From Verrucomicrobiales bacterium (GTDB taxonomy: Bacteria > Verrucomicrobiota > Verrucomicrobiia > Limisphaerales > UBA1100): 64,000 nt of DNA. The position numbers and the translations under genes are program-made. The notes beneath the pieces were generated by a model that saw only the letters and a program-made list of their open reading frames with translations, was not told the DNA's origin and did no database searches. The stretch is taken from positions 13,542-77,541 of the forward strand of contig SYLI01000053.1 of assembly GCA_005809105.1 (NCBI GenBank). The letters run 5' to 3'. Below, in pieces: positions 28,250 to 58,420 of the stretch (positions within the stretch are counted from its first letter, which is position 1; every line of letters begins with the position of its first letter).

Positions 28250-30199
28250 CTACTCCGGCGCCGACGCGGGGGGCGCGAAGGGCGTGTACTCGGGCACCAT
28301 CTCCTGGAGCGCGGACTTGAGTTCTGAATCGGACGCGCCATCCAGCCGCCCTTCCAGCGCCTCCATCCGTGCCCGCAGCAGCGACAGCGTCGGCGCGTCG
28401 CCCTCCATGCTGCGAATCTTGGGATGAGCCGTGTGCGCCAGCCGCTCGCCCTCCAACTGCAGTTCCTCAAAGAGTTTCTCCCCGTGCCGCAGCCCGGTGT
28501 ACACGATGGGGATGTCCACCTCCGCGCGCAAACCGCTCAGCTCAATCATGAGCGCCGCCAGTTCGGCGATCTTCACCGGCGCGCCCATGTCGAGGACGAA
28601 CACCTCCCCTCCGCGGCCCATCGTGGCGCTTTGCAGCACCAGTCCCACCGCCTCGCTCGTCAGCATGAAGTAGCGCTTCATGTCCGGATGGGTCACCGTC
28701 ACCGGGCCGCCCAAGGCAATCTGCTTGGCGAAGGTGGGCACCACGCTCCCGGAGGAGCCCAGCACGTTGCCAAAGCGCACGGCCAGAAACCGCGTCGGCC
28801 CCGGCTGCGACGCTTGGAGCGACTGCAGGCAGAGTTCGGCCAGCCGCTTGCTCGCCCCCATCACGCTCGTGGGATTGACGGCCGTGTCGGTGGAGATGAG
28901 CACAAACCGCCCCACTCCCTGCGCTCGCGCCAGCTCTGCCAGCTTCAAGGTTCCGAATGAATTATTGCGCAGCGCCTCCGCGGGCTGCGATTCCATGAGC
29001 GGTACGTGCTTGTGCGCCGCCGCGTGGAAGATCACCTCGGGCGCCGCCTCGTCCAGCAGGCGCCGCATGCGCGCCACGTCGGTGATGTCCGTCACGGCCG
29101 CGCGCAGCACCGGGGCATTGGGCGTGCCGGCCAGCTCCTGCGCAATGGCGAACATTTGCACCTCCGAGCGGTCCACCAGCGTGAGCTGCGCGGGTTGGTG
29201 CCCGAGGATCTGTCGGCACAGCTCCGAGCCGATGCTGCCGCCTGCGCCTGTGACCATCACGCGACGCCCGCACAGCAGCGAGGTGATTTCAGCCGTCCCA
29301 AGCTCGACGCGCTGGCGGCCCAGCAGGTCTTCGATGGCCACAGGCCGCAGCTCGGTCACCTTGCCGCGCCCTGCCGCCAGCTGTTCCAGCGAGGGCACGG
29401 TGCGATGCGGCAGACGAGCCTCACGCAGCAACCCCACCACTGCGCGGATCCGTTGCGACGGCGCCGAAGGCATGGCGATTAAAAGCTCGTCAATCTCCCA
29501 TCCGTCCAGACCGGCGGCGCGATCCAGCGCTCCGGCCACGGGGATGCCGTGGATGTTGGCGCCGCGCTTGCCGGGGTCATCGTCAAAGAAAACGACCGGC
29601 TTTAATCCCAATCGCGGCTTGGCCATCAGCTCGCGCGCCAGACTCGCACCCACTTCGCCTGCTCCAAGAATCGCCACCCGAACGAGCCCGTCGGCGCCCT
29701 TGGCCGGCAGGAAGCGACGCTCGCGGATGAGGCGGAACATCAGCCGTGCGGAAATCAGTCCGGCGAGGGACAGCATGGCGTCCACCAGCAACACTCCGCG
29801 CGGAACGGCGGGCGGCGTGAGGGCGGAATTGAGCGGTGCCCAGCCCAAGTGCCAGAGCGCCAGCAGTGCCGCCGAGGGCAACGCCACGGCCAGCGCCACG
29901 CGCCGCAGGTCGGGGATGCTAAAGTAGCTGAGCAGCGATGCGAACTGTCCGCACGCCAGCAGGCAGAGCAACTTGACCGCCAGCACCCATGGCCAGATGC
30001 GAACGCAGTGCCGGTGGTAGGCTTCCGGCACGGCGAATTCGAACCGGATCTGGTAGGCCATCCACGCACTGGCTGCGAGCACGCCCGAGTAGAGCAGCAG
30101 CAGAATGATCCACCGCTCCAGCCGGCTGATTTTGATCGAGTGCAAGGCCATGGACAGGGGCGCCAAGGCCAGCGTAGGGAAAAGGGGCGCGCCACTCAA
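28250..30199 (-). CDS. CapD/PglF-like membrane-bound UDP-GlcNAc 4,6-dehydratase
   Basis: Four TMs, GAGEVG, TGAGGSIGSE, HAAAHKHVP, VRFGNVLGSSGSV. Start TTG 30199 or ATG 30151. Confidence 0.92.
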   Translation of the reverse strand: MSGAPLFPTLALAPLSMALHSIKISRLERWIILLLLYSGVLAASAWMAYQIRFEFAVPEAYHRHCVRIWPWVLAVKLLCLLACGQFASLLSYFSIPDLRRVALAVALPSAALLALWHLGWAPLNSALTPPAVPRGVLLVDAMLSLAGLISARLMFRLIRERRFLPAKGADGLVRVAILGAGEVGASLARELMAKPRLGLKPVVFFDDDPGKRGANIHGIPVAGALDRAAGLDGWEIDELLIAMPSAPSQRIRAVVGLLREARLPHRTVPSLEQLAAGRGKVTELRPVAIEDLLGRQRVELGTAEITSLLCGRRVMVTGAGGSIGSELCRQILGHQPAQLTLVDRSEVQMFAIAQELAGTPNAPVLRAAVTDITDVARMRRLLDEAAPEVIFHAAAHKHVPLMESQPAEALRNNSFGTLKLAELARAQGVGRFVLISTDTAVNPTSVMGASKRLAELCLQSLQASQPGPTRFLAVRFGNVLGSSGSVVPTFAKQIALGGPVTVTHPDMKRYFMLTSEAVGLVLQSATMGRGGEVFVLDMGAPVKIAELAALMIELSGLRAEVDIPIVYTGLRHGEKLFEELQLEGERLAHTAHPKIRSMEGDAPTLSLLRARMEALEGRLDGASDSELKSALQEMVPEYTPFAPPASAPE

Positions 30200-30942
30200 G
30201 GCGCCTTCGCCGCCCCCAAGTCAACACCCACCACCTGCGACATGCCCGGCGGCGGATGCGGCACCAGCGTGCCTTTTCGGCCGGCGGCGGCGCACACCTC
30301 GGGCGCAGCACCCAGAGAGGCCACTAGTTTTTCCAGCCGATCCAACGCCGACCGCCGGTTCACCAGAGTCAGCGCCGTCAACCCCAGCAGCTGCAGATCC
30401 AACCCCACCGAAGCGTGGCTCACGTAGAGCAGTCCCAGCCGTGATTTCCACGGGCGGATGAGTTGGTTGTAGGCCAAGTCCGGATCGGCGCTGCCGCGCA
30501 GCACGTCGGATTCGTCGGCAAACGCGATGGAGGCCATGTCGGTGATGCCCGGCCGTGCATCGAGCAGATGGCGCTCCTGCGGCGTGTAGGCGCGCACCTC
30601 GCTCTCCACGTTGGGCCGCGGGCCCACCAGACTCATGTCGCCGATCAACACGTTAAAAAGCTGCGGCAGCTCGTCGAGCTTGAAGCGCCGGATCACATGG
30701 CCCAGCCGCGTGATGCGCCGGTCATCCCCTGCGGTGGAACTCACTCCGGTGGCGTCGGCACGAATCACCATCGAGCGCAGCTTGAACATCCGGAACCGGC
30801 CGCCGCCACGCGCCACGCGCCACGGGATGTACAGGGGCGAATGAAAATCCTGAAGCCAGACCAGCAGCGCGGCCAGAGCCATGAACGGCCCGGTCACCGC
30901 CAGACCGCAGAGCGCGCCCGCGATGTCCAGCAGCCGCTTCAC
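30196..30942 (-). CDS. Initiating polyprenyl-phosphate sugar-phosphotransferase (PglC-like)
   Basis: KRLLDI, KLRSM, FKLDELPQLFNVLIGDMSLVGPRP, RPGIT. GTG start at 30942. Confidence 0.92.
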   Translation of the reverse strand: MKRLLDIAGALCGLAVTGPFMALAALLVWLQDFHSPLYIPWRVARGGGRFRMFKLRSMVIRADATGVSSTAGDDRRITRLGHVIRRFKLDELPQLFNVLIGDMSLVGPRPNVESEVRAYTPQERHLLDARPGITDMASIAFADESDVLRGSADPDLAYNQLIRPWKSRLGLLYVSHASVGLDLQLLGLTALTLVNRRSALDRLEKLVASLGAAPEVCAAAGRKGTLVPHPPPGMSQVVGVDLGAAKAP

Positions 30943-31919
30943 CGTGTCAGTTCCCGCGCCCGCTCGGCGAGGGTTTCCGCCGTGGGATAATACGCCCGCT
31001 CCAGCCGGCCATTGGTGGGCGCAGGCGCCGGCGGCAGCGTGAGCCTGGCCGGCGCTGACTTCCATGCGGTGGGCGGCAGGGTCTCGGCGGCCAGCGCCAC
31101 CAGCTCGGCTGAGAAACCGCAGGCGGCCCAACCGCCATCCACCGCAAGCAGTCGGCCCGTACGCCGCACCGAATCGCATAGCACTCTTGCCGCTCCATCC
31201 GTCACGGGGCCGGGCACGGGGATGTCGATCACCTCCGCCGACACATTCTGGCGGGCCAGCAGCTCCGCAGCCTTTCCGCACAGGTGCGCGCTATGGCCCG
31301 TGCCCACAAGCGTGATGTCATGGCCTGCGCGTCTCACGCGCGGCAGCACGTCGCGCAGCGACACGGCCGCCATGGAGGTGTCGGCCTCCGACACGTCGTA
31401 GAGAGCGCGGTCATCAAGGTACACGACCGGATCATCGCAGAGCACACTGGCCACAAGCAGATCGCGCGCGTCCGCCGGCGTCGAAGGCATCACCACGCGC
31501 AGACCGGGCACGTGCGCAAACCATGCGTGCAGCGCCTGCGAGTGTTGCGCGCCCTGCTCGCCACCGCGGTTGATGATGGCCCGCACCGTCAGGGGCACCG
31601 GGATGCCGCCGCCAAACATGTGATTCCAGTTGGCGGCCTGATTGACGATGGCATCCAGCGCCAGCACGGCAAAGTCCACTCGGGGATGCACCACGATGGG
31701 CCGGTAGCCACCCAGTGCCGCACCCAGTGCCGCGGCAGTGGTGGCCGCCTCGGAGACCGGGCTGTCAATCACCCGCGCCGTGCCAAATTCCTTCTCCAGA
31801 TCGCGCATGGTATTGCCCACATACCACGGGCTCCACAGTCCCTGCCCGATGCAGAAGCATTCACGATGCTCGCGCAGCAGGTGCCGCAGGGCGACTAGGA
31901 TGCCATCGGCGTAGGTCAT
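30939..31919 (-). CDS. ThDP-dependent E1 beta subunit (transketolase C-terminal-like)
   Basis: DSPVSE, QGAQHSQ, VPGLRVVMPSTP. ATGA coupling on both sides. Confidence 0.9.
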   Translation of the reverse strand: MTYADGILVALRHLLREHRECFCIGQGLWSPWYVGNTMRDLEKEFGTARVIDSPVSEAATTAAALGAALGGYRPIVVHPRVDFAVLALDAIVNQAANWNHMFGGGIPVPLTVRAIINRGGEQGAQHSQALHAWFAHVPGLRVVMPSTPADARDLLVASVLCDDPVVYLDDRALYDVSEADTSMAAVSLRDVLPRVRRAGHDITLVGTGHSAHLCGKAAELLARQNVSAEVIDIPVPGPVTDGAARVLCDSVRRTGRLLAVDGGWAACGFSAELVALAAETLPPTAWKSAPARLTLPPAPAPTNGRLERAYYPTAETLAERARELTR

Positions 31920-32962
31920 GGGGCCGAGAAGACGCGTCCTTGCAGCGCCGCCTGCGGGGGATCGGGTGCCGCCTGCGCCGCATCCCAAGCCTGGGCGACG
32001 GCCGCGCGTGCATGCGCCTGGGCTTCGCTGAGCGCAGCGGCGGAAAGATGGCCGGCCTGCTCAAGCGCCGCCGCCAAACGCCCGATGGGATCGCGCAGCT
32101 TCCACTGCGCCAGGTCGTCCTTGCGTTTCACGCCCACGTCCACGTCCTCGCTCGGGCCCACGTGGCCACGCCACCGGTAGGTGAGGGCCTCGATGTAAAA
32201 AGGCCCCGCGCCTGAGCGGGCGTGGTCCGCCGCCTGCCGCATCGCCGCCACCACCGCGGGCAGATCGTTGCCTTCCACGCGCAGAAAGGGAATGCAATGA
32301 GCCACGGCATGGCGGCAGGTGGAATCGGCCGGCTGGCGCAGCCCGATGTGGAGGTGGCTTGAGTAGAGATTGTTTTCGCAGAAAAAAACGACCGGCAGGC
32401 GCAGCGTGGCAGCAAGGTTGAGCGACTCATGGAAGACGCCTTCTTCCGTGGCTCCATCGCCAAAGCAGGTGACGGCCAGCGCGCCCCTGCCGTCCATCTG
32501 GGCCGCCAGCGCCGCGCCTGTGGCAATGGGAATGGTGGCGCCGACGATGGGCACCGAACCCCAAAACTGGTGCGCCACATCGCGAAGGTGCATCGAGCCG
32601 CCCATGCCGCGCGAGCAACCGGTATCGCGTCCCAACACTTCATCCAAGAGCTGGCGGGGGCTCCCGCCCAACGCCAGAAAGTGCGCATGCGATCGGTGCG
32701 CACCAAAGACGCGATCGTGCGGCTGGATTTGCGAAGCCATGCCGACGGCAGCCGCCTCTTGGCCGATGGCCAGATGGCACGGGCACCGGATGGTCCCGGC
32801 GCGGACACCCTCGCCGATGCACACCTCCACCGCGCGAATGAGCAGCAGCGTGTCCAGCGCGGTAATCGCCTTGGCCGGCGGCAGGTCTCGCAGATCCACT
32901 GGCTCGTGGTACTGCGCGGGATCCGCCAGTGCGCCCAGTGTGGCCGGATCAGGCGACGCCAT
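31916..32962 (-). CDS. ThDP-dependent E1 alpha subunit
   Basis: HLAIGQEA, GMGGSMH, GDGATEEG...CENN, TYRWRGH. Confidence 0.92.
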   Translation of the reverse strand: MASPDPATLGALADPAQYHEPVDLRDLPPAKAITALDTLLLIRAVEVCIGEGVRAGTIRCPCHLAIGQEAAAVGMASQIQPHDRVFGAHRSHAHFLALGGSPRQLLDEVLGRDTGCSRGMGGSMHLRDVAHQFWGSVPIVGATIPIATGAALAAQMDGRGALAVTCFGDGATEEGVFHESLNLAATLRLPVVFFCENNLYSSHLHIGLRQPADSTCRHAVAHCIPFLRVEGNDLPAVVAAMRQAADHARSGAGPFYIEALTYRWRGHVGPSEDVDVGVKRKDDLAQWKLRDPIGRLAAALEQAGHLSAAALSEAQAHARAAVAQAWDAAQAAPDPPQAALQGRVFSAP

Positions 32963-34064
32963 AGAATTTCCGGATCGCACCACAAATGAAATCCACCTCG
33001 TCGTCGGTGAGCGAGGTGTTCATCGGCAGCAGGAAGCAGCGCTTAAAGAGGCGATCGGTGTGCGGCAGATGGACTTGGTCAAAGCCAAGGCCGCTCAGCC
33101 TGTGGACGGGTTTGCCTCCCCACTGCACGAGCGTGCCCACGCCCTGCTCCAAGAGGTGCGCCCTCAGCGCGTCGCGACGGCCCGATTCCACTTCGTAGTT
33201 TTGATAGACATCATAACGGCCGTTCTCGTCAGGCCCGGGCGGCAGTGTTAGATCCTCCAGCATGGACAGCCCAGCGCGGTAGCGGGCGGCGAGCGCGCGC
33301 CGGCGTTCCATTTCCGCCGGGTAATGCTTGAGCTTGGCCAGCAGCACCGCCGCCTGCACGGTGTCCAGCCGCGAGTTAAATCCCCACGTCACCACCTCGC
33401 CTAGTTCGTTGCGCCCGTGGTCACGCAGCAGGCGCACGCGGCGGGCCATGTCGTCATCGTTGGTCATTACCAAGCCGCCGTCACCCAGGCAGCCGAGCAA
33501 CTTGGCGGGGTAGAGGCTGATCATCCCTGCCAGACCGAAAGTGCCAGCGCAACGGCCCTGAAAGCGTGCGCCCAGCGCCTGCGCGGCGTCCTCGATGAGC
33601 AGCAGACCATGCCGCTGCGCCAGCGCCGAGAGCGCCTCCATGTCGCAGACACGGCCATTGAGCTGCGTGGGCAGCAGCGCGCGCGTGCGCGACGTGATGG
33701 CGGCCTCCACCGCCCGCGCGTCGATGAGGTGATCCGCGCCGCATTCCACCAGCACGGGTTTGGCGCCGTTGAAGTGCACGGCAGCGGCCGTCGCAACGTA
33801 GGTGTGTGACGCGAGAATGACTTCATCACCGGGGCCGACGCCCGCAGCGCGCAGGGCGATAATGAGCCCGTCGGTTCCGTTGGCCACGCCCACGACATGG
33901 CGCGCGCCCGTGAGCTTCGCGATGCCCTCCTCGAACTGGCGCACCTCGTCCTGCAGGATGTACGCGCCTCGTTCCATGGTGAGAAGCATCGCCGACATCA
34001 CTTCTTCGCGGTGCTGCGCAAAGACGTGCGGGTAGCGGAAAAAAGGGATCTTGAGCGCCGCCAT
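32949..34064 (-). CDS. DegT/DnrJ/EryC1/StrS sugar aminotransferase
   Basis: ANGTDGL, EDAAQA, SLYPAKLLGCLGDGG, NSRLD. Confidence 0.92.
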   Translation of the reverse strand: MAALKIPFFRYPHVFAQHREEVMSAMLLTMERGAYILQDEVRQFEEGIAKLTGARHVVGVANGTDGLIIALRAAGVGPGDEVILASHTYVATAAAVHFNGAKPVLVECGADHLIDARAVEAAITSRTRALLPTQLNGRVCDMEALSALAQRHGLLLIEDAAQALGARFQGRCAGTFGLAGMISLYPAKLLGCLGDGGLVMTNDDDMARRVRLLRDHGRNELGEVVTWGFNSRLDTVQAAVLLAKLKHYPAEMERRRALAARYRAGLSMLEDLTLPPGPDENGRYDVYQNYEVESGRRDALRAHLLEQGVGTLVQWGGKPVHRLSGLGFDQVHLPHTDRLFKRCFLLPMNTSLTDDEVDFICGAIRKFYGVA

Positions 34065-34135
34065 AAAGCGAAACCGCGCCGAGCGTAGAGGCGCGCGGCG
34101 CGGCTGCAAATCCCAATCTCTTAACAAGCCTGCCG

Positions 34136-34903
34136 TCAGCCGGGCTTGCGCGAATGGACGACGATTTTGAAGGCCCACTCGCGCAGGCGCCCGCGCGGCT
34201 CGCGCGCCTCAACCCAGCACCCGGCTTGGCGCCCATCGCACCAGAGCCGCAGCAGCGGCAGCAGAAACGCCAGCACGTCGAAGTGCTCCACCTGCGTTCC
34301 GGGAAAGCGCTCGCTCCACTGTGCCAGCCAGCGCCTGTTGGGAATGCGCCGATTCACCATTGCGGTGCGCCGCCCGCGCAGTCGGTGCAGCCACCGGTTG
34401 AAGCGGTAGATGGGACTGTGGTTATACGAGTCCACCGCCACGAACCAGCCGCCGGGCCGCAGCACGCGAAAGATTTCGTCGCGCACCCGCTGCCAGTCGC
34501 CGTACGAAAGTCCGCCTGCGCACGTCACGCCGCCGAACGCGCCATCCTCGAAGGGAAGCTGTTCGCAGTCGCCCTGCACCCAGTGCATCCTTTCGTGCAG
34601 TGCCTCCGGAGTGCGCCTGGCCGCAAGCACGAGCGCCCTGTCGGAAAAGTCCAGCCCGGTCACTCGCGCGCCCACCGACGCCGCCACGAAGCTGAACTGC
34701 CCGTCGCCACAGCACAAGTCCAGCACAGCGTCACCGGGCTTGTTGAGGCTGCATACGAGGGATGCAAATCGCAGATATGGCCGGCGCAATTCCTCCGGAA
34801 TCCCATCCGCCCCGAGGGGTGCCAGCGGGTTCGGCGCGGCAAGCGACTGCGCGGCGCGGTCGTCGTACCGTCTGCGCTCGGTCTCTTTATCGGCCTGCGT
34901 CAT
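34136..34903 (-). CDS. Class I SAM-dependent methyltransferase
   Basis: VLDLCCGDG, GDCEQLPFEDGAF, RVLRPGG. Confidence 0.88.
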   Translation of the reverse strand: MTQADKETERRRYDDRAAQSLAAPNPLAPLGADGIPEELRRPYLRFASLVCSLNKPGDAVLDLCCGDGQFSFVAASVGARVTGLDFSDRALVLAARRTPEALHERMHWVQGDCEQLPFEDGAFGGVTCAGGLSYGDWQRVRDEIFRVLRPGGWFVAVDSYNHSPIYRFNRWLHRLRGRRTAMVNRRIPNRRWLAQWSERFPGTQVEHFDVLAFLLPLLRLWCDGRQAGCWVEAREPRGRLREWAFKIVVHSRKPG

Positions 34904-35981
34904 CTGGAGTTGCCTGCGGGAGTGGAGGCCATGCGCGGAATCGCCCCGCCCCCGGCCAGGGCTCGCGGATGCTTTGCACCGGCGCCGTGCCCGTCAGCAG
35001 CCGCAGCAGTCCCGCCAGCACACCCACTCCATGCAGGAAATGAAACAGGAAGAAGGCGAAGGGCAGGACGAGAATGTGCCGCGGATCGCGATAGCGCGCC
35101 GCTTGTTGGGCACCGGCCACGATTGCCAGCGTCGCATACAGAACCATGGCGGCGCCAAAGCCCCATCCAATCCATGGCCAATGCGGAGTCAGTGCCGCCC
35201 CACCAATGACCCCAAGGGCGAACACGCCGGTGATGGCGTGGCGCGGCGCAAACGCGTAGGGCGCCAGATACCACATATACGCATTGTAGGGCGCCTCCCA
35301 CCGGAGCTGTTTTATGAGGAAGCCCCAAAATGAAGCCTGGTTGTAATAGGCAGAAACGATGGCCGGGTTCAGCCACACCTTGGCTCCCGCGGCGATGGCG
35401 CGGCGGTTGAACTCGTAGTCTTGGGCGCGAACAAGGCGCTCATCAAAACGACCCGCGCGTTCAAACACCGAGCGGCGATAGAGTGCAAAGGGGACGGTGT
35501 CGGCCGGCCCTTCCTCTGCTCCCGTGCGGAAGCCCGACCCTCCCACACCAAAGCGATGCGTGGTCAATGCCTGCACGACGGCCGCCCCGTATCCCGGGCC
35601 GCCGACGCGCGTCTCCAACACACCGCCCACAATGTCCGCCGAGGTGCGCCGGGCGGTCTCAAGCAGGAGCGACAAGTAATCGGCCGGATACTCCGCATGG
35701 GCACCAAGCCACAACAGGAATTCACCGGGCTTCGCGTCCAGCGCTTGGTTGAGCGCTGCGGCCTGCCGTCGCATGGGGTTGAGAAAATACCGGACGCGCG
35801 GCTCACGTGCGCCCCAATCTTGGATGACTTTGGCTGTGCGATCCTCGGACGCGCCGTCAAACACCCAGACCTGCCAAGAGACGGCCTCCAAGCCGGTGAA
35901 TTGGAGGATGGATTCCAGACACGGCCCGATGCGCGATTCCTCGTTGCGCACCGCGATGACGACGGTGACCGATTCAGGCAT
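34887..35981 (-). CDS. GT2 glycosyltransferase with C-terminal TMs
   Basis: VIAVRNEE, DGASED, GRFDERLVRAQDYE. Confidence 0.9.
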   Translation of the reverse strand: MPESVTVVIAVRNEESRIGPCLESILQFTGLEAVSWQVWVFDGASEDRTAKVIQDWGAREPRVRYFLNPMRRQAAALNQALDAKPGEFLLWLGAHAEYPADYLSLLLETARRTSADIVGGVLETRVGGPGYGAAVVQALTTHRFGVGGSGFRTGAEEGPADTVPFALYRRSVFERAGRFDERLVRAQDYEFNRRAIAAGAKVWLNPAIVSAYYNQASFWGFLIKQLRWEAPYNAYMWYLAPYAFAPRHAITGVFALGVIGGAALTPHWPWIGWGFGAAMVLYATLAIVAGAQQAARYRDPRHILVLPFAFFLFHFLHGVGVLAGLLRLLTGTAPVQSIREPWPGAGRFRAWPPLPQATPDDAGR

Positions 35982-37053
35982 GGTCCGCCAGGATGCGCAC
36001 TATTTCCTCAGCCGCCCGGCCATCGCCGTAGGGCAGTTGGTTTACCGGCGGCAATGCGCTCCCGCGCGCGGACGCCACGGCATGGACAATGGCATCGGCA
36101 TCGGCGGGATTGGCGAGGCGGTTCCATCCGCCCTCGACAAGTTCCACCCATTCGGTTTCGGTGCGCACCGTCACACATGGCACACCATGGAACGCGGCCT
36201 CCTTTTGCACGCCGCCCGAGTCGGTGAGAATGACGGCGGCCGATTGCTCAAGGCGCTGCATGTGCAAATAGCCGACCGGACTCTCCATCCGCACGGCCGG
36301 ATTGATGCCCGCGAGCGCCAGCTCTTTCCTTGTGCGAGGATGCACGGGCCAAATCACCGGGAGGTTCAGGTTGATTCGTTCGAGGGCCGAAACGATGGCA
36401 CCGAGCCGGGCGGCGCAGTCGGCGTTTTCCGCGCGGTGAATTGTGGCGAGCAGGTAGCCCTTCTCTTTCAGCCCCCAGTCTTGAAGAATCTGGGATTGGC
36501 TGCGGGCCAGCGCCCCATAGTGCAGTGTCGCGTCGTACATCACATCACCCACCTGATGGACGGAAGGGCCAGCGATGCCCTCCCGGGCAAGATTCTGAAC
36601 AGCCTGCTGGGTTGGAGCAAAAAGCAGGCTCGAAAGATGGTCTGCGACGACGCGGTTGAGCTCCTCGGGCATGGCTCGATTGTAGGAACGCAAACCAGCC
36701 TCCACATGCGCGACCGGCACGCGCAACTTGGCCGCCGCCAGTGCGCCTGCTAAGGTCGAGTTGGTGTCGCCATAGACGACCACCCACTGCGGCTTTTGCT
36801 CGAGGATGACCCGCTCGAGTGCCGAGAGCATCCGGCCAGTCTGGTCGCCATTGAGCCCGGAGCCGATTCCCAGATTGTATTTCGGCCTTGGGATCTCCAA
36901 CTCGCGGAAGAACACCTCCGACATCGTCTCGTCGTAGTGTTGCCCCGTGTGGACACAGACTTCATGAAGCCGCCCGTGCCGCGCGATGACGCGGGAAACC
37001 ATGGCGGCCTTGATGAATTGCGGCCGAGCCCCAACAATGGTGAGGAGGGTCAC
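35974..37053 (-). CDS. wecB: UDP-GlcNAc 2-epimerase, non-hydrolysing (WecB/WbpI-like)
   Basis: GARPQFIK, HTGQHYD, GDTNST, HVEAGLRS, TDSGGVQKEA. Confidence 0.93.
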   Translation of the reverse strand: MTLLTIVGARPQFIKAAMVSRVIARHGRLHEVCVHTGQHYDETMSEVFFRELEIPRPKYNLGIGSGLNGDQTGRMLSALERVILEQKPQWVVVYGDTNSTLAGALAAAKLRVPVAHVEAGLRSYNRAMPEELNRVVADHLSSLLFAPTQQAVQNLAREGIAGPSVHQVGDVMYDATLHYGALARSQSQILQDWGLKEKGYLLATIHRAENADCAARLGAIVSALERINLNLPVIWPVHPRTRKELALAGINPAVRMESPVGYLHMQRLEQSAAVILTDSGGVQKEAAFHGVPCVTVRTETEWVELVEGGWNRLANPADADAIVHAVASARGSALPPVNQLPYGDGRAAEEIVRILADHA

Positions 37054-42226: not shown

Positions 42227-42251
42227 GGCTGGCTCCTCTTGCCTTTGCTGG

Positions 42252-48828: not shown

Positions 48829-48829
48829 G

Positions 48830-49495
48830 CTAGGAAGGCTGGGACTGTTTGAATTGGCGATAGGCGACCGCCCCCACCGCCAGCGTTGCGGGCAATGGCG
48901 CATCTTCGGCCACATCCACGCCGCGCACCACGCCCTCCGCAAGCCGGTAGCGCAGTTTGGACTCGGGGCAGAGGGCCTCTCCTTGGGCCGTGAAATGGAG
49001 CGCATGCCCGTGCCGGCTCATCCAGCCGCGCTGCCGCGCCGGAGTGCCCATCATGAGCGCGTAGTCGGGCACATCGCGCGTCACCACCGCACCCGCCGCG
49101 ATGAACGCATAGCGGCCGATGGTGATGCCGCAGACAATCGTGGCGTTGGCGCCGATGGTCGCACCGCGACGCACGAGGGTCTTCTCGTACAGCGCGCGGC
49201 GCGCCACCTGCGAGCGCGGATTGCTGACGTTGGTCAGCACGCAGGAGGGCCCCAGAAACACATCCTCCTCCAGCGTCACCCCATCGTAGATGGCGACATT
49301 GTTCTGCACCTTCACGCGGTCGCCCAGCACCGCCGTGGGGGCGACATAGACATTCTGCGCCAGACTGCAGTGCGCGCCGATGCGCGCCCCCGCGCAGACA
49401 TGCGCGAAGTGCCAGAGGCGCGTGCCCTCCCCGATGAAACAGGGCTCATCGATGACGGCCGTCGGATGAGCGGTGAATGCAGCCGGAGCGCTCAT
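48830..49495 (-). CDS. WbpD/WlbB-like hexapeptide N-acetyltransferase
   Basis: WHFAHV, VKVQNNV, TNVSNPRS, GATIGANAT, RGWMSRHG. Confidence 0.9.
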   Translation of the reverse strand: MSAPAAFTAHPTAVIDEPCFIGEGTRLWHFAHVCAGARIGAHCSLAQNVYVAPTAVLGDRVKVQNNVAIYDGVTLEEDVFLGPSCVLTNVSNPRSQVARRALYEKTLVRRGATIGANATIVCGITIGRYAFIAAGAVVTRDVPDYALMMGTPARQRGWMSRHGHALHFTAQGEALCPESKLRYRLAEGVVRGVDVAEDAPLPATLAVGAVAYRQFKQSQPS

Positions 49496-50496
49496 TCCAC
49501 CTTCACGGGCTGGCCATTGAGTTGCAATGAAGCCTGACACGCCTCCAGCACCTGCAGCACGCGCACACCCGACGCGCCATCGGTGAGCGGCGGCTGGCGG
49601 TCCTCAAGACGCGCCAGAAAATGTTCGCACTCGGCGCGCAGCGGCTCCACGCCTGCGGGCAGCGGCACAGGCGTGTGCCCGTTCTTATGTAGCACCGGCT
49701 GCCTGCCTTGGAAATCCACGCGCTGATCAAATAGTACGAGCTTGTCGGTGGCAGCCACATCGTCAAACACCGCCATGCGCTTCTCTCCCATCACCACCAG
49801 CCGCTGCTCCTTGAAGGGGTTGAGCCAGCTCACAAAAATGTGCGCGCGCATTCCTGAGCGGAACAGCAGCGTGGACACCGTGACATCGGCGAGGTTTGAG
49901 GTGATGTAGCTTCCGCCCGCGCAGGTCACCTCTTGGGGCAGCTCGCCGGCAAGTCGCAGGATCACCGCCACGTCATGTGGCGCGAAACTCCAGAGCGCAT
50001 TTTCTTCCGTGCGGATTTTCCCGAAGTTGAGCCGGTGCGAATAGATGTAATTGACGCGGCCCATCTGGCCCTCCTGCAGCAGTTCACGCAGGCGCAACAC
50101 CGCCGGATGATATTCGAGCAGGTGCCCCACCATCAGCACCCGCTGGCCTTGGGCCGCCTGCTGCACCAGCAGCCGCCCCTCCGCAGCGCACAGCGTCAGC
50201 GGCTTCTCCACCAGCACATCCTTGCCGGCGGCCAGAGCCTGCTGGACGAGGCCAAAGTGGGTTTCCGCGGGCGTGGCAATCACCACGGCGTCGATGTCCT
50301 CACGCTGGAACGCCGACCCGAAGTCCGTGCTCACTTCCACCCCCGGCGCGGCCGCCTGCGCGGCAGCACCTGCCTGCGGCGCCGGATCGCAAATGAGCCG
50401 CAGCGCGCCCAACTGGTGGAACACCCTCGCGAGGTTGCGCCCCCAGTAGCCGCAGCCCATGAGGGCCACGCGAGGTGTCGACGGGTTGCCGCTCAC
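49492..50496 (-). CDS. Gfo/Idh/MocA oxidoreductase (WbpB/WlbA position)
   Basis: GCGYWG, IATP, VEKPL, SFAPHD. GTG start overlaps the upstream stop. Confidence 0.88.
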   Translation of the reverse strand: MSGNPSTPRVALMGCGYWGRNLARVFHQLGALRLICDPAPQAGAAAQAAAPGVEVSTDFGSAFQREDIDAVVIATPAETHFGLVQQALAAGKDVLVEKPLTLCAAEGRLLVQQAAQGQRVLMVGHLLEYHPAVLRLRELLQEGQMGRVNYIYSHRLNFGKIRTEENALWSFAPHDVAVILRLAGELPQEVTCAGGSYITSNLADVTVSTLLFRSGMRAHIFVSWLNPFKEQRLVVMGEKRMAVFDDVAATDKLVLFDQRVDFQGRQPVLHKNGHTPVPLPAGVEPLRAECEHFLARLEDRQPPLTDGASGVRVLQVLEACQASLQLNGQPVKVE

Positions 50497-51800
50497 GCCT
50501 TCCACACTTTCGCCCTGCACGAACCCACGGCCGCCATCGCATTGCGCGTGTCCACGATGGCGGGCACGCATTGGCCGAGCAGCGCGCAGTCCACGCCTTG
50601 GTGGGCCGTGACGATCACGGCCAGATGGTGGCGGCGCAGGTTCGCCTCGGTCCACGCCACCGACGCCTTGCCCGCCCAGTGAGCGTGTTCGCGCGTGACG
50701 GGGACGAGCGGAATGTGCGGGTCGTGGTATTCCACCTCGGCACCCCGTTCGCGCAGCGCGTCCATGATGACGAAGCTGGGCGACTCGCGGCAGTCGTCCA
50801 CATTGGCTTTATAGGCCAGGCCAACCACCAGCACGCGGCTGCCGCGCAGCGCGCGCCCCGCCGCATTGAGCGCCTCGGCGGCGCGGTCCACCACGCGCAG
50901 GGGCATGGCGGTGTTGATCTCGCCGGCGAGCTCGATGAACCGGGTGTTTAAGCCGTGCGCCCGCGCCTTCCACGCCAGGTAGAAGGGGTCGATGGGGATG
51001 CAATGGCCGCCCAGCCCGGGCCCCGGATAGAAGGGCATGTAACCAAAGGGCTTGGTCTTGGCCGCCTCGACGACCTCCCAGATGTCAATGCCCATGCGCT
51101 CGTAGATCACCTTGAGCTCGTTGACGAGCGCGATGTTGACCCCGCGAAAGATGTTCTCCAGCAGCTTGGCCGCCTCGGCCACGCGGCAGGAGGACACCGG
51201 CACCACGCGGCCCACGGCGCGTGAGTAGAGCGCCACGGCTTGGTCGCGACACGAGGGCGTGAGACCTCCGACGATCTTGGGGATGTCGCCGATGCGACTC
51301 TGCGGGTTGCCGGGATCTTCGCGCTCAGGCGAGAACGCCAGATGGAAGTCCACGCCTGCCTTGAGGCCCGAACCGGCCTCCAGCACCGGCAGCAGTTCCT
51401 CCTCCGTCGTGCCCGGATAGGTGGTGGACTCAAGCACCACCAACATGCCGCGCGCAAGGTGTGGCGCAATGGCGCGGCCGGTATTAAGCACGTACGACAG
51501 GTCGGGCTCGCGGTGCGCCGTGAGCGGCGTGGGCACGCAGATGAGCACGGCCTGCGTCTGGGCCACCTTGGAAAAGTCCACGCTGGCCTCCAGAAGCCCG
51601 GCGTGCCTTTGCGCGGCGATGGCCTCGGCGGGGATGTGCCGAAGGTAACTCTCCCCGCGGTTGACGCACCCCACCTTGGCCGCGTCCACGTCCAGCCCCA
51701 CCACAGCCACTCCGGCCTTGGCAAACTGAATGGCCAAGGGCAGGCCCACGTAGCCTAAGCCAACGATGGCGATTTTCGCAGAGGGCGAGGGTGGCGTCAT
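50493..51800 (-). CDS. UDP-GlcNAc 6-dehydrogenase (WbpA-like)
   Basis: GLGYVGLP, CVPTP, ESTTYPGTT, KLLENIFR, GPGLGGHCIPIDPFYL. Confidence 0.93.
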   Translation of the reverse strand: MTPPSPSAKIAIVGLGYVGLPLAIQFAKAGVAVVGLDVDAAKVGCVNRGESYLRHIPAEAIAAQRHAGLLEASVDFSKVAQTQAVLICVPTPLTAHREPDLSYVLNTGRAIAPHLARGMLVVLESTTYPGTTEEELLPVLEAGSGLKAGVDFHLAFSPEREDPGNPQSRIGDIPKIVGGLTPSCRDQAVALYSRAVGRVVPVSSCRVAEAAKLLENIFRGVNIALVNELKVIYERMGIDIWEVVEAAKTKPFGYMPFYPGPGLGGHCIPIDPFYLAWKARAHGLNTRFIELAGEINTAMPLRVVDRAAEALNAAGRALRGSRVLVVGLAYKANVDDCRESPSFVIMDALRERGAEVEYHDPHIPLVPVTREHAHWAGKASVAWTEANLRRHHLAVIVTAHQGVDCALLGQCVPAIVDTRNAMAAVGSCRAKVWKA

Positions 51801-51806: not shown

Positions 51807-52319
51807 TTAGGAGAAAATCCGTTCCGCCAAAGGCAGCAGCATCTTGATGCGCGATTGGATGGCGCGCAGGCGTGTGAGCCTCTCCACGATGAGCGCGTGT
51901 TCCTCCGGCGAGTAGCTCTCTTTCTCGGCCTCAATCTTGGCGAGCATTTCGTTCATGTGCGCGTCGGCATTTTGCAGCCGCGACTTAAAAAGGTTTTCAT
52001 AGGCGCGCCGCGCCAGTTCGCCCAGTTCCACCACGGCTTCGTAGCCATCCTTCCTTGCCGCGCGTACAAACACCCTTCGGGCGGCGCCCAGCGAAACCAG
52101 TTGGCGCGCACCGGTGCTCACGCTGGCCTTGCTCAAGCCCAGGCATTGGGCGATCTCATCGAGCGTCATGGGGCGCGGCGCCAGATAGAGAAGGCCGTAG
52201 ATTTCTCCCACCGACCGGGCGATTCCCAGCGACTGGGCGAACCGGCCGCAAGCCTCCACCATGTCCAACCGCGCGGCGGGCAAGCCTGGCAGGGCTTTGG
52301 ATAAGGCGGATTCTTCCAT
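51807..52319 (-). CDS. GbsR/MarR-family transcriptional regulator
   Basis: LGIARSVGEIYGLLYL...MTLDEIAQCLGLSKASVSTGARQL. Confidence 0.85.
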   Translation of the reverse strand: MEESALSKALPGLPAARLDMVEACGRFAQSLGIARSVGEIYGLLYLAPRPMTLDEIAQCLGLSKASVSTGARQLVSLGAARRVFVRAARKDGYEAVVELGELARRAYENLFKSRLQNADAHMNEMLAKIEAEKESYSPEEHALIVERLTRLRAIQSRIKMLLPLAERIFS

Positions 52320-52489
52320 CGCACTACGCACGGATACGACGATCACCGGGAACTGGGAACGGCAGCCACGCCACAAGACAAAACCCACGAGAAGAGTCGG
52401 GAGGCCGAATGGCCTTGAGACACTCCGTGCCCGTCACTTCGCACCCATGGCGCACTTCACAGAACCAAAATCCAATCAAATGATCGGAA

Positions 52490-52559: not shown

Positions 52560-52560
52560 G

Positions 52561-53064
52561 CTAAATCAGAATCAGGTCGGCGGCGTCCATCTTGATGGCG
52601 GCGGCTTTGGAGATGAAATCGAGCCGCAGCAAGACCGTGGTGGGGCCTTGCCGGGTCTCAACCCAGCCCTCGATTCCCTTGAGTGGGCCTCGCTTGATTC
52701 GCACCATCGCACCCTCTGAGATGATGGGAGAGAGTTGAATCTCGTAGCCCATTTCCATGGCGGCGACAATGGCGGCAAGCTGGCGAAGGAACAGAGGCTC
52801 ATCATCCACCTCGAGCAAATGGACGAGGCAATGGCTCTCCCACAAGAGCCTGCGCGCTGCCGGTGTCGCGTGGACGAAGAGATAGCCTGGGAAGAGCGGC
52901 TTGTGGAAGGTGAGCGTCTTGCCGCGGTAACGCTTCACCGACCGGTAGCACACCAACTCATGCACCAGGGCGTGTTGGGTGCAGTGTCGGGAGAGCTTCT
53001 TCTCGCACCGCGGGCGCGTGTGGGCCACCCACCAACGCAAGTTGCAGCCGTCCACGCCTGGCAT
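52561..53064 (-). CDS. NusG-paralogue antiterminator (RfaH/UpxY-like)
   Basis: WWVAHTRPRCEKK, KPLFPGYLFV, KOW motif VRIKRGPLKGIEG. Confidence 0.88.
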   Translation of the reverse strand: MPGVDGCNLRWWVAHTRPRCEKKLSRHCTQHALVHELVCYRSVKRYRGKTLTFHKPLFPGYLFVHATPAARRLLWESHCLVHLLEVDDEPLFLRQLAAIVAAMEMGYEIQLSPIISEGAMVRIKRGPLKGIEGWVETRQGPTTVLLRLDFISKAAAIKMDAADLILI

Positions 53065-53070: not shown

Positions 53071-53400
53071 CTAAGGCGACTTGAGTTGAACCAGGCCTCC
53101 GCGGGCCTGGGATTTAAGGAATACGTCCGGGTGCTTGGTGATGAGGTTGCTGACGTTGGATGAGGCAATCCCGGTTCGCAACGCGATGTCTTTGACACGC
53201 GCACCCTTGCGGCCGACGGCCTGCCGGATCCGATCCAGATTGGAATCACGATGCCTTCCGCGAGCCCTCGTGGCCGAGGCTGCCTTGCCTGCCGCCCCGG
53301 CGGCGGCCGTCAGTTCCCGGCCAAAATCGTTGAGCCACTGTTCCAGCAGCCTCGCCAGTCCCCGGGACAACACCCGATTCGCCCGTCCAAGCCCTTGCAT
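53071..53400 (-). CDS. Small basic protein with a putative C-terminal winged HTH
   Basis: GARVKDIALRTGIASSNVSNLI; ends 6 bp before the NusG paralogue. Confidence 0.55.
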   Translation of the reverse strand: MQGLGRANRVLSRGLARLLEQWLNDFGRELTAAAGAAGKAASATRARGRHRDSNLDRIRQAVGRKGARVKDIALRTGIASSNVSNLITKHPDVFLKSQARGGLVQLKSP

Positions 53401-53545
53401 CGTCAATACGCCCTCTTAAGATATTACTATCGACTCTGGATACTAGCGCGCTTTCCCATGCCGGCGCAATGACCAACTGGGCTTTCGTGAATTTCTTTTG
53501 CTTTTAAGCGCCACGCCACTCGCGCAGTCTTGAGAGCGCGTCGTC

Positions 53546-58420: not shown

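Follow-up and report, generated by a model that had tools for sequence, protein, structure and literature searches.

Bacterial N-linked protein glycosylation of the PglB type has been described in Campylobacterota and Desulfobacterota. In most organisms with a pgl system, N-glycosylation is limited to a few proteins. PglB prefers Thr at the +2 position of its sequon, and the C. jejuni enzyme also releases free periplasmic oligosaccharides from the lipid-linked glycan. Enzymes of related kinds are found in loci for surface polysaccharides: the Wbp pathway of Pseudomonas aeruginosa O5 feeds a Wzy-polymerised O-antigen that is ligated by WaaL, and O-antigen and capsule loci typically show NusG-paralogue-headed operons, Wzx, and PglF/WbpM-like end genes. 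The minus-two rule of Campylobacter PglB is described in PMC12229607, where a relaxed -2 requirement is also described for several Desulfobacterota homologues. A literature search, which excluded supplements, found no paper on PglB-type N-glycosylation in Verrucomicrobiota or the PVC group; the supplementary trees of Lombard 2016 might contain PVC STT3 sequences.

Does a verrucomicrobium glycosylate its exported proteins in this way? The window analyzed here, a stretch of 64,000 nucleotides, belongs to a Verrucomicrobiales genome (G000) that is 95.9% complete. It probably encodes a bacterial pgl system, built on a PglB-type enzyme, for general N-glycosylation of proteins. A look-up of sequencing runs listed three DNA runs from one study labelled freshwater metagenome, and none of RNA. 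A gapless minus-strand operon of 23 ORFs (28250-53064, 24.8 kb), with an extra small ORF before it, lies head-to-head with a giant oligosaccharyltransferase (OST) gene. Headed by a NusG paralogue, the operon codes for about 15 enzymes that modify sugars, besides its PglF-like, PglC-like, Wzx, GT2, and GT-like proteins (Table 1). All 23 ORFs were scanned with Pfam, and transmembrane (TM) segments were taken from a crude hydropathy count. A preliminary description had placed a PglB-like gene head-to-head with a ~24 kb locus for initiation, flipping, and modification of a glycan, and every gene that it named lies at the position given.

Table 1. Features of the OST gene, the divergent glycan operon, and the adjoining flank, in order from the OST
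Feature	Position	Strand	Evidence
Giant PglB-type oligosaccharyltransferase (OST), 1624 aa	53546..58420	+	Pfam STT3 and STT3-PglB_core
Small ORF, 111 aa, HTH-like C-terminal stretch; possible first operon gene	53071..53406	-	Between OST and NusG-like gene
Specialised NusG paralogue (UpxY/LoaP/RfaH-like antiterminator)	52561..53064	-	Pfam NusG, E 4.3e-7
Terminator-like hairpin and T-run directly after NusG-like stop codon	52544..52559	-	Consensus scan
MarR-like winged-helix regulator	51807..52388	-	Pfam MarR_2, E 9.7e-6, below cut-off
UDP-N-acetylhexosamine 6-dehydrogenase (WbpA/WecC/TviB-like)	50493..51800	-	Three UDPG_MGDP_dh domains; NCBIfam NDP-sugar dehydrogenase, 406 bits, above cut-off
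GFO/IDH/MocA oxidoreductase (WbpB-like 3-dehydrogenase)	49492..50655	-	Pfam; NCBIfam UDP-GlcNAc 3-dehydrogenase below cut-off
Hexapeptide N-acetyltransferase (WbpD/PglD/NeuD family)	48830..49540	-	Pfam Hexapep; NCBIfam NeuD/PglB/VioB below cut-off
DegT-family sugar aminotransferase (WbpE-like)	47713..49005	-	Pfam DegT_DnrJ_EryC1, E 2.7e-113
SDR sugar epimerase/dehydratase	46727..47809	-	Pfam Epimerase, E 1.6e-50
Wzx-type flippase, ~11 TM segments	45270..46730	-	Pfam Polysacc_synt, E 1.5e-16
SAM-dependent methyltransferase	44331..45242	-	Pfam
AsnB-type glutamine amidotransferase	42252..44174	-	Pfam Asn_synthase, E 1e-86; NCBIfam TIGR01536, 497 bits, above cut-off
SAM-dependent methyltransferase	41399..42295	-	Pfam
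SDR epimerase/dehydratase/reductase, three consecutive	40402-41547, 39467-40402, 38388-39527	-	Pfam Epimerase, E 2e-38 to 2e-40
458-aa soluble protein, no clear family, possibly glycosyltransferase	37093..38469	-	Weak Glyco_trans_1_2, E 0.0026; no TM segment
Non-hydrolysing UDP-N-acetylhexosamine 2-epimerase (WecB/WbpI-like)	35974..37053	-	Pfam Epimerase_2, E 6.8e-107; NCBIfam wecB, 309.7 bits, above cut-off
GT2 glycosyltransferase	34887..35981	-	Pfam Glycos_transf_2, E 6.7e-23
SAM-dependent methyltransferase	34136..34903	-	Pfam
Second DegT-family aminotransferase (PglE/PseC-like)	32949..34178	-	Pfam, E 2.4e-92
TPP-dependent E1 alpha (31916-32983) and E1 beta (30939-31988)	30939..32983	-	Pfam E1_dh, Transket_pyr, Transketolase_C
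Small PglC-type polyprenyl-phosphate sugar-phosphate transferase, one TM segment	30196..31281	-	Pfam Bac_transf, E 4.2e-45
PglF/WbpM-type membrane UDP-GlcNAc 4,6-dehydratase, 649 aa	28250..30199	-	Pfam Polysacc_synt_2, E 2e-107, and CoA_binding_3
Exported protein ORF1286, 1286 aa; conserved flank, outside machinery	24377..28237	+	Translation; no Pfam match

Judged by its sequence, the OST is a genuine member of the PglB clade with intact catalytic and sequon-binding motifs. It matches the Pfam families STT3 (E 3.9e-14; PF02516, 53.4 bits, cut-off 24.5) and STT3-PglB_core (E 3.2e-18; PF21436, 67 bits, cut-off 23). Residues 17-712 of C. lari PglB (PDB 5ogl/3rce) are collinear with it (E 9e-41), five stretches matching 5ogl_A. 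The segments THDSYFF, YFDTDMF, and STIQE align to the catalytic motifs of PglB, namely the EL1 Asp (D56), the EL2 D-x-D (D154/D156), and the EL5 T-I-x-E (E319), and the motif that binds Ser/Thr at +2 of the sequon is TWWDYGG (residues 1020-1026). R491 aligns with C. lari R331, the residue that imposes D/E at -2. The stretch corresponding to the MI motif (M-x-x-I) reads K-L-L-P-I, retaining the Ile but with Leu in place of Met, and relatives read M/L-x-x-I/F. Among 52 PglB-like proteins, D71, R276, D283, D285, E479, and R535 (OST numbering) are invariant, W-W-D-x-G is nearly so, and R491 is conserved in at least 90%; these motifs are also kept throughout the verrucomicrobial clade. A quick tree places the OST in a clade of Verrucomicrobiota, Planctomycetota, and Parcubacteria, beside the Campylobacterota PglBs and far from archaeal AglB. 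The STT3 models and the tree thus bear out the PglB-type assignment of the preliminary description, and the tree supports the verrucomicrobial host that it had proposed.

The enzyme is unusually large. Its 1624 aa (over double the length of PglB) and its ~18 hydrophobic segments by crude count depart from the canonical ~700-720 aa and 13 TM helices. Relative to C. lari PglB it carries three large insertions: residues 91-226 in loop EL1; residues 552-996 (~440 residues), which contain extra TM helices and follow the catalytic TM core, ahead of the periplasmic domain; and residues 1156-1567, which are periplasmic with Sel1-like repeats. Comparison of G000 with its congener G001 (both genus g1) shows the insertions to be about as conserved as the core (66-67% identity in both halves). 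ESM Atlas look-alikes of the 552-996 insertion are STT3 fragments and DUF2298, all with scores <0.9. Among the best 150 of 405 library relatives, only three exceed 1500 aa, and the NCBIfam model ProtGlycPglB (NF050801) scores the OST at 213 bits, under its equivalog cut-off of 1300.

What glycan would such an enzyme receive? Family-level matches and known pathways suggest that the operon makes modified UDP-sugars. The PglF-like dehydratase and an aminotransferase would yield a reducing-end sugar of the 2-acetamido-4-amino-trideoxyhexose type, and the WbpA/B/E/D/I-like set with the AsnB-like amidotransferase would yield a 2,3-diacetamido-uronic acid or its amide, amidation of the uronic acid being the likely role of the AsnB-type protein. 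Further decorations may come from the three methyltransferases and the TPP-dependent E1 pair; the latter, matched by NCBIfam PDH E1 models below their cut-offs and not found in any relative's locus examined, probably supplies two-carbon units with which a sugar is decorated in an unusual way. The PglC-like transferase would start the glycan on undecaprenyl phosphate, the GT2 and GT-like proteins would extend it to a short oligosaccharide, Wzx would flip it, and the OST would transfer it en bloc to Asn in D/E-X-N-X-S/T of exported proteins. The 458-aa GT-like protein has no NCBIfam match and only the weak Pfam glycosyltransferase match of Table 1. Many modifying enzymes agree with the "short, heavily decorated" glycan of the preliminary description as far as decoration goes; its shortness is suggested only by how few glycosyltransferases the locus has.

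The NusG paralogue, the MarR-like protein, and the small HTH-like ORF probably control the 25-kb transcript and ensure that it is read through to its end. The paralogue scores 55.6 bits against the NCBIfam UpxY family (cut-off 100), and its LoaP and RfaH matches are likewise below cut-off. The small ORF has no Pfam family and aligns with the corresponding intergenic region of G001 with a coding-like pattern. The hairpin after the NusG-like gene is a pattern match only, since the scan gave three sites where 1.5 were expected.

How does this locus compare with described systems? Like the pgl systems of C. jejuni and C. lari, it has a single-subunit OST collinear with PglB, with equivalents of D56, D154/D156, E319, R331, R375, and WWDYG, and a linked locus with a PglF-like dehydratase, an aminotransferase, and a PglC-like initiator. 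A PglF/PglE/PglD-type route to a 2-acetamido reducing-end sugar, with a PglC-type initiator, is represented by the PglF-like and DegT proteins, one hexapeptide acetyltransferase that might serve this sugar or another, and the small Bac_transf protein. The acidic -2 sequon is a further likeness, implied by the R331 equivalent together with the proteome footprint described below. In contrast to the 713-aa PglB, the OST has 1624 aa and three insertions, and it is divergent from the operon rather than inside it, with NusG-like and MarR-like regulators at the operon head. Neither the PglK ABC flippase nor the PglA/J/H/I GT4 set was found in the window locus, their places being taken by Wzx and by the GT2 and GT-like proteins, whereas the locus of a relative (G013) holds a PglK-like ABC exporter. 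The host is a verrucomicrobium, and the OST is 29-38% identical to Campylobacterota PglBs. The PglB homologues of Desulfobacterota (Desulfovibrio) are likewise single-subunit bacterial OSTs outside Campylobacterota; however, two "Deltaproteobacteria" entries fall on a branch separate from the verrucomicrobial clade in the quick tree, and here the footprint points to use of an acidic residue (D/E) at -2.

The sugar-modifying genes have their closest counterpart in the Wbp pathway of P. aeruginosa O5 (B-band), which uses these enzyme families too and whose chemical steps run in the same order: 6-dehydrogenase, 3-dehydrogenase, aminotransferase, N-acetyltransferase, and 2-epimerase (WbpA/B/E/D/I), plus a PglF/WbpM-type dehydratase. 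Unlike that pathway, the locus has no Wzy or Wzz, and its conserved neighbor is an OST. The UpxY-headed capsule loci of Bacteroides also begin a long glycan operon with a specialised NusG paralogue, and UpxY is the best NCBIfam match here, but the match is below cut-off and the partner is MarR-like instead of UpxZ. By gene content the glycan is not a capsule, because the locus lacks Wza, Wzc, and Wzy.

Linkage of the OST to the operon is conserved. Of 19 verrucomicrobial loci, 14 have the OST running divergently from a NusG-like/MarR-like pair with sugar genes behind it, the synteny that the preliminary description had looked to. In G013 the flanks are the same, with an ORF1286 homolog and PglF at one end and the NusG-like gene and OST at the other, and the middle differs: alongside the ABC exporter, it contains three clear GT1-family matches and a weak fourth. 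The ABC exporter at 15893-17809 of the window, 10 kb outside the locus, is a possible PglK equivalent; it is only 32% identical to the in-locus exporter of G013, with most of the similarity confined to the ATPase portion.

No other pathway that could supply the OST with a donor was found in G000. Genome searches gave one Bac_transf gene, the PglC-like gene of the locus, and one clear Wzx, the locus flippase; the sole Glycos_transf_4 gene is MraY, between MurF and MurD. Neither the Pfam scan of the 23 locus ORFs (no Wzy_C, Wzz, Poly_export, or ABC exporter match) nor the crude hydropathy count (no polytopic protein other than Wzx) reveals a polymerase or exporter, in agreement with the preliminary description. 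The possibility that a polytopic protein without annotation is in fact a Wzy was weighed for the window and G013 loci and rejected, as the sole proteins without a family are soluble. In the genome at large, Wzz and Poly_export are absent (0 each), and there is one Wzy_C-family gene (G000:C56, 457 aa), on a different contig and unlinked to the locus, whose neighbors are sulfatase, SGL, and RCC1-repeat genes. The Wzy_C family does not distinguish a ligase from a polymerase or an O-OTase. G001 has only a sub-threshold Wzy_C match, and in genus g4 Wzy_C is matched in none of nine genomes, four of which have the OST core.

If the OST is active on many targets, its preference might be recorded in the exported proteome. 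Using proteome classes based on crude home-made heuristics for gene and signal-peptide calls, we found D/E at -2 of N-x-S/T in 191/965 exported sites (0.198) versus 104/1051 cytoplasmic sites (0.099) in G000 (OR 2.25, p 3e-10), a footprint of about 100 excess sites. Neighboring positions have D/E at 0.08-0.09, and the controls N-x-nonS/T and Q-x-S/T are flat. D and E are each raised ~2.1-fold, and the frequency is higher at N-x-T (0.242) than at N-x-S (0.139). The excess persists in proteins of <=600 aa, in sites without G at +3, with one protein per paralogue cluster, and in singleton clusters (73/361, 0.202). A calcium-binding loop as its cause was rejected, given that E is enriched too and that the subset without G at +3 retains the excess. 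Some of the sequon-rich proteins of G000 are FG-GAP/LamG repeat giants, and the highest sequon contents include those of YidC and a periplasmic PPIase. Predicted targets are a DUF4340/PPIase protein (contig C9), YidC (C61), ORF1286, and an FG-GAP giant (C63).

The congener G001 repeats the footprint (exported 42/192, cytoplasmic 10/100), and it was not seen in the OST-less relative G037 (14/195). Partial samples of other OST-bearing genera gave no significant excess: 20/153 versus 14/150 in G005, 12/146 versus 20/169 in G010, and 8/73 versus 7/77 in G003, where the sample was 190 kb at GC 0.50 and ORF calling was weak. Therefore, the footprint tracks genus g1 and not OST presence as such. A further control, G033 (GC 0.42), left only 76 ORFs past the GC3 filter and was uninformative. 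Conservation was assessed in 208 reciprocal best pairs from G000 and a 397-kb sample of G001. In this underpowered test of 29 extended sequons, 18 were fully kept and D/E at -2 was kept at 0.76 versus a background of 0.85; extended sequons were not better conserved than plain sequons or background D/E.

Could the glycan be destined for the cell surface instead? It might be a semi-rough LPS O-unit of a single repeat, or another surface glycan, ligated to lipid A-core by the lone Wzy_C protein, with an OST that is merely syntenic and has another donor or few targets. The presence of one Wzy_C gene in G000, the NusG-headed operon with Wzx and a PglF/WbpM-like end gene, and a locus whose middle, in the manner of O-antigen loci, changes from genus to genus between conserved flanks all suit this explanation. 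Nonetheless, we consider it rather improbable: G000 has no other initiating transferase or flippase to feed the OST, the Wzy_C gene sits unlinked among sulfatase, SGL, and RCC1-repeat genes, genus g4 has the OST and the locus but no Wzy_C match in nine genomes, the G001 match is sub-threshold, and the footprint requires an N-OST that works on many proteins. A minority possibility, to be taken more seriously, is dual use, in which the same lipid-linked glycan also reaches lipid A-core through this Wzy_C-family protein; its gene elsewhere in G000 is what makes an LPS destination possible. The OST, synteny, genome search, and footprint support the lipid-linked glycan for N-glycosylation proposed in the preliminary description; its qualification "rather than an O-antigen" is weakened by the lone Wzy_C protein, which could ligate this glycan to lipid A-core.

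The footprint, too, might have another source. Were it an artefact of the crude way in which ORFs and signal peptides were called, or a structural motif (e.g., a calcium-binding loop) common in the secreted proteins of this genus, any N-glycosylation might be limited to few proteins. The heuristic classes, the lack of excess in G005, G010, and G003, the sites without extra conservation, and the repeat giants among the sequon-rich proteins lend this some color, but E is up as much as D, the excess survives every subset examined for G at +3, protein length, singletons, and clustering, it is seen only at -2 and only with S/T at +2, cytoplasmic proteins of G000 lack it, and its Thr bias at +2 matches the known preference of PglB; we hold such an origin to be distinctly unlikely. 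Less probable still is a giant OST that is inactive on proteins or acts chiefly as a hydrolase, turning the lipid-linked glycan into free periplasmic oligosaccharides. Its three large insertions, one of which sets the periplasmic domain ~440 residues apart from the catalytic TM core, its score below the PglB equivalog cut-off, and the Met to Leu change in the MI motif would fit, yet all catalytic and peptide-binding residues are kept, including the R331 equivalent, which is relevant only to peptide acceptors, the insertions are about as conserved as the core, and the footprint occurs in exactly the genus with the giant enzyme.

General N-glycosylation by the OST remains our preferred reading. 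If true, pgl-type N-glycosylation also occurs in the PVC group, in one of its free-living members, a separate PglB clade is defined, and an OST architecture without a described counterpart is added. Furthermore, a compartment-specific D/E footprint at -2 would provide a purely genomic screen for active N-glycosylation, and new OSTs that accept uronic-acid-rich, heavily modified glycans would be of interest for glycoengineering. Why does the footprint appear in only one genus? A speculative and, in our view, unlikely answer is that the OST of genus g1 is a roughly 21-helix machine docked to the export and folding apparatus through its extra membrane bundle and Sel1-type repeats, a single-chain analogue of the eukaryotic translocon-coupled multi-subunit OST that gives the exported proteome a bacterial glycan coat; the many sequons of YidC and the periplasmic PPIase are notable in this light. 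Translocon coupling, if real, would explain a selected, proteome-wide D/E-X-N-X-S/T footprint in genus g1 only. Within the window itself, ORF1286 is a candidate glycan acceptor, with 16 N-x-S/T sites, four of which have D/E at -2.

Sequence evidence points to a probable PglB-type N-glycosylation system in Verrucomicrobiota. The kind of system is known; new here are the verrucomicrobial host, a giant oligosaccharyltransferase (OST) and a Wzx-based locus headed by regulators. The N-glycosylation reading of the preliminary description is supported by intact OST motifs, a unique linked locus, synteny and a proteome footprint; this footprint, evidence beyond the reach of that description, strengthens the reading.

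The OST (P0001, 1624 aa) matches the Pfam families STT3 and STT3-PglB_core, in line with the original PglB-like assignment, and retains the PglB motifs. It aligns with the Campylobacter lari PglB structures (E 9e-41) in five collinear stretches spanning PglB residues 17-712. The catalytic motifs are kept as THDSYFF (D56 equivalent), YFDTDMF (D154/D156) and STIQE (E319), together with LRFTIH (R375), WWDYG and an Arg at the position of R331, by which PglB recognises an acidic residue at sequon position -2; the MI motif position reads L-L-P-I and is MI-like. Among 52 aligned PglB-like proteins, D71, R276, D283, D285, E479 and R535 show no variation, and conservation of R491 and W-W-D-x-G is at least 90%. 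At the sequence level, the PglB-type catalytic and sequon-binding apparatus is intact. Relative to PglB there are three insertions. The first (residues 91-226) falls in periplasmic loop 1; the second (552-996) contains many hydrophobic helices (about 10 segments versus two in PglB by a crude count); the third (1156-1567) belongs to the periplasmic domain and matches Sel1 repeats weakly. These insertions are partly shared with relatives of 2188-2397 aa and are about as conserved as the core in the congener G001, where both halves show 66-67% identity. The NCBI PglB equivalog model scores 213 bits, below its cut-off of 1300. The protein is classed here as a PglB-clade OST of aberrant architecture rather than a Campylobacter PglB orthologue.

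An unbroken minus-strand gene string lies divergent from the OST gene, as judged by ORF listing and a GC3 frame check. By Pfam, it encodes, in order, NusG-like and MarR-like proteins; a UDP-sugar 6-dehydrogenase, a GFO/MocA oxidoreductase, a hexapeptide acetyltransferase and a DegT aminotransferase; an SDR enzyme, Wzx, a methyltransferase, an AsnB-type amidotransferase and a methyltransferase; three SDR enzymes, a soluble protein of 458 aa that Pfam matches only weakly, to Glyco_trans_1_2 (E 0.0026), and a UDP-GlcNAc 2-epimerase; a GT2, a methyltransferase, a second DegT and a TPP-dependent E1 alpha/beta pair; and a small Bac_transf (PglC-like) and a PglF/WbpM-like Polysacc_synt_2 protein. Pfam scans of all window ORFs agree with the gene inventory first described, including its lack of polymerase and exporter: no ORF in the locus matches Wzy_C, Wzz, Poly_export or an ABC exporter. 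Wzx is the sole polytopic locus protein by a crude hydropathy count. Because ORF string, Pfam scans and hydropathy count all agree with it, the observation is confirmed.

What would this locus build? Family-level matches and the known Pgl/Wbp pathways point to a diNAcBac-like reducing-end sugar and a further 2,3-diacetamido-uronic acid or its amide; putative decorations are methyl groups and a two-carbon unit that depends on E1; the glycan would be moved en bloc to Asn. The E1 pair, pyruvate-dehydrogenase-like and absent from all relatives' loci compared by tblastn with window proteins, hints that this genome alone adds an uncommon two-carbon group to a sugar. The NusG paralogue, which NCBIfam places closest to the UpxY family (score below cut-off), may antiterminate the operon. 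Directly after its stop codon and before the MarR-like gene lies a G+C-rich hairpin with a T-run (pattern match only), which could be a terminator overridden by the paralogue. Between the OST and NusG-like genes is an ORF of 111 aa whose C-terminal part is HTH-like; it has no Pfam match and shows a coding-like conservation pattern in G001. Upstream of it, the motif AAGCAAAAGAAATTCAC recurs in G001 and, in looser form, in two relatives, G013 and G007.

Which enzymes could start or consume this glycan? The genome (2.99 Mb, 106 contigs, 95.9% complete) holds one Bac_transf match and one clear Polysacc_synt match, the PglC-like enzyme and Wzx of the locus, plus one weak Polysacc_synt match. The only Glycos_transf_4 match is MraY (TIGR00445, 325.7 bits versus a cut-off of 192), between MurF and MurD; therefore the genome has no WecA, and any undecaprenyl-linked glycan except lipid II must start at the window locus. 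The predicted assembly locus, with its initiator, flippase and few transferases, is unique in the genome. Extended genome-wide, the absence noted for the locus holds in part: family searches of this 95.9%-complete genome gave no Wzz or Poly_export, and both ABC2_membrane matches lie on contigs other than that of the window, but there is one isolated Wzy_C gene (457 aa; a WaaL, Wzy or O-OTase candidate), whose neighbours are sulfatase, SMP-30/SGL and RCC1-repeat genes. The OST and this lone protein are the only recognisable possible consumers, and the latter might share the locus glycan with LPS. Wzy_C matches number 0-2 per genome in family f1 (mostly 0 or 1) and 1-8 in other families of the order, with 3-8 in all of these except f9. 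None was found in nine genus g4 genomes (MAGs, 82-95% complete), four of which (G007, G010, G013, G023) have the OST core, all with an adjacent NusG-like locus start. Family f1, with genomes of about 3 Mb, appears to have lost the majority of its genes of the O-antigen-ligase family.

To examine linkage, the 27 proteins of the window were compared by tblastn with the loci of verrucomicrobial and other relatives. The proposed association of OST and glycan locus is kept in 14 of 19 verrucomicrobial loci (own, G001, G003, G005, G007, G009, G010, G013, G014, G023, L035, L041, L049 and L050), a count in which some L-numbered loci may duplicate G-numbered genomes. In these, the NusG-like/MarR-like pair and then the dehydrogenase, oxidoreductase, acetyltransferase and aminotransferase set lie divergent from the OST; the same search did not find this arrangement in G002 or G032, nor in three loci of Opitutia type (L039, L046 and L048). 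The predicted linkage is conserved at this level. The other flank, a zinc-ribbon protein and ComM-like ATPase after the OST, is kept in L004, L021, L049 and L050. In G013, the NusG-like to PglF block occupies about 29 kb, and a homologue of ORF1286 comes next, in the place that ORF1286 has in the window. This exported 1286-aa protein, convergent with the PglF-like gene and lacking a Pfam family, has D/E at -2 in 4 of 16 N-x-S/T sites and may be a dedicated surface glycoprotein. The middle of the G013 locus is unlike the window's: it has a PglK-like ABC exporter and WecA-like initiator in place of Wzx and the PglC-like enzyme, four proteins with GT1-family Pfam matches (three clear, one weak), a HisH/HisF-like pair, a carbamoyltransferase and a soluble protein with an SGGTDSS (PP-loop-like) motif and no Pfam family; no Wzy was found there by Pfam and hydropathy count. 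Therefore, two different assembly logics lie between the same kept flanks. A middle that varies inside conserved flanks is the pattern expected of a surface-glycan locus under diversifying selection.

Locations of the features discussed (own genome, G000, with the window at C36:13542-77541; relative, G013)
Feature	Location	Strand
Glycan gene string	window 28250-53064	-
OST P0001	window 53546-58420	+
E1 alpha/beta pair	window 30939-32983	-
Hairpin with T-run	window 52544-52559	-
111-aa ORF	window 53071-53406	-
ORF1286	window 24377-28237	+
Zinc-ribbon membrane protein (273 aa) and ComM/Mg-chelatase-like ATPase, after OST	window 58730-61278	
MacB-type sets and ABC ATPase/FtsX pair	window 3492-14873; 21364-23276	-; +
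MsbA/PglK-type half-transporter	window 15893-17809	-
Wzy_C gene	G000:C56:3833-5206 (L067)	-
DUF4340/PPIC-rotamase protein	G000:C9:23075-24856 (L191)	+
YidC	G000:C61:31057-32937 (L197)	-
PglK-like ABC exporter	G013, L059 4153-5934	+
WecA-like initiator	G013, L060 5572-6606	+
ORF1286 homologue	G013, L060 9440-9961	

Does the proteome carry a footprint of the enzyme? From 2061 ORFs of 100 aa or more (filtered by GC3, chosen greedily without overlap, 87% coding), a simple rule defined 554 exported proteins (N-terminal hydrophobic 12-mer, at most one later TM segment, first 40 residues dropped) and 1125 cytoplasmic ones (neither 12-mer nor TM segment). At N-x-S/T sites (x not Pro), D/E occupies -2 in 191/965 (0.198; protein bootstrap 95% CI 0.165-0.228) of exported versus 104/1051 (0.099; 0.081-0.119) of cytoplasmic sites (Fisher OR 2.25, p 3.2e-10). 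D and E each rise about 2.1-fold (107 and 84 of 965 versus 59 and 45 of 1051). In exported proteins, positions -6 to -3, -1, +1 and +3 to +6 give 0.078-0.094, and the controls N-x-nonS/T (0.107) and Q-x-S/T (0.069) show no excess. The -2 frequency is 89/486 in exported proteins of at most 600 aa, 162/856 after removing sites with G at +3, 73/361 (0.202) in singleton blastp clusters and 0.202 on average with one protein drawn per cluster; it is 134/554 (0.242) for N-x-T versus 57/411 (0.139) for N-x-S. By our own arithmetic, about 100 extended sequons (D/E-X-N-X-S/T) exceed a baseline of about 0.09. The excess fits the predicted OST specificity and lies in the right cell compartment. Candidate first targets for glycopeptide searches are a periplasmic DUF4340/PPIC-rotamase protein (D/E at -2 in 7 of 8 sites) and YidC (5 of 10); a vWA-like membrane protein has 4 of 4 and a 3847-aa FG-GAP/LamG protein 19 of 70.

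With a minimum ORF length of 120 aa, the same script was applied to partial samples of other genomes. G001 (OST 1604 aa), kin of G000 in genus g1 and not an independent replicate, gave 42/192 (0.219) exported versus 10/100 cytoplasmic (p 0.015). G037, of the same order and with no STT3 by protein or family search, gave 14/195 (0.072) versus 8/117; its exported class differs from that of G000 with p 1e-5. Thus, the footprint is genuine in genus g1 and missing from one relative without an OST. At these sample sizes, three other OST-bearing genera did not show it: 20/153 versus 14/150 (p 0.36) in G005 (genus g5, OST 938 aa), 12/146 versus 20/169 (p 0.35) in G010 (genus g4, 894 aa) and 8/73 versus 7/77 in G003 (genus g3, 2429 aa; GC 0.50, weak ORF calling). 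G033, without STT3, is uninformative at 76 ORFs (2/21 versus 12/78). Across 208 pairs of reciprocal best matches that link G000 with the G001 sample (median identity 76%), 18 of 29 extended sequons in exported proteins are fully kept, with D/E(-2) kept in 22/29 (0.76) versus 0.85 for other D/E, and N-x-S/T in 20/29 versus 56/87 plain sequons. This small test of 29 sites shows no excess conservation; provided that the footprint is selective in the first place, this points to selection for density with turnover of individual sites.

How widespread are such enzymes? Of the genomes sampled, 5 of 151 in the order, all from families f1 and f9, and 11 of 401 in the phylum score above the Pfam cut-off for STT3; both counts include G000. 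The N-terminal 585 OST residues matched 405 proteins at E<=0.001 (68 at E<=1e-30) in a library of 1.84 billion representatives; among the best 150 of the 405, only three exceed 1500 aa, and only these align through the EL1 insertion. A word-indexed search of 893-2842 aa proteins gave nine clusters, the window's own OST among them. After the verrucomicrobial OSTs, the next-nearest are Campylobacterota PglBs (29-38% identity). In a quick maximum-likelihood tree (short search, 43 rows x 700 columns, two archaeal rows as root), verrucomicrobial OSTs form one branch (SH-aLRT 91; several rows long-branched), joined by a Planctomycetota row (95) and then a Parcubacteria row (97). As the suggested kinship with PglB anticipated, this group stands beside the Campylobacterota clade (89) and a Deltaproteobacteria-labelled pair. 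Literature searches on PglB/STT3 OSTs in Verrucomicrobiota, on N-linked PglB glycosylation in Planctomycetes or the PVC superphylum, and on PglB more broadly found no treatment of the subject for these groups.

The window also holds two tandem MacB-type sets, each with an FtsX/MacB_PCD permease, ABC ATPase, HlyD-like adaptor and OEP outer-membrane factor, plus a further ABC ATPase/FtsX pair; these are tripartite efflux or lipoprotein-type exporters unrelated to glycosylation. An MsbA/PglK-type half-transporter (638 aa, ABC_membrane and ABC_tran), 10 kb from the locus, shares 32% identity, mainly in the ATPase half, with the ABC exporter within the G013 locus.
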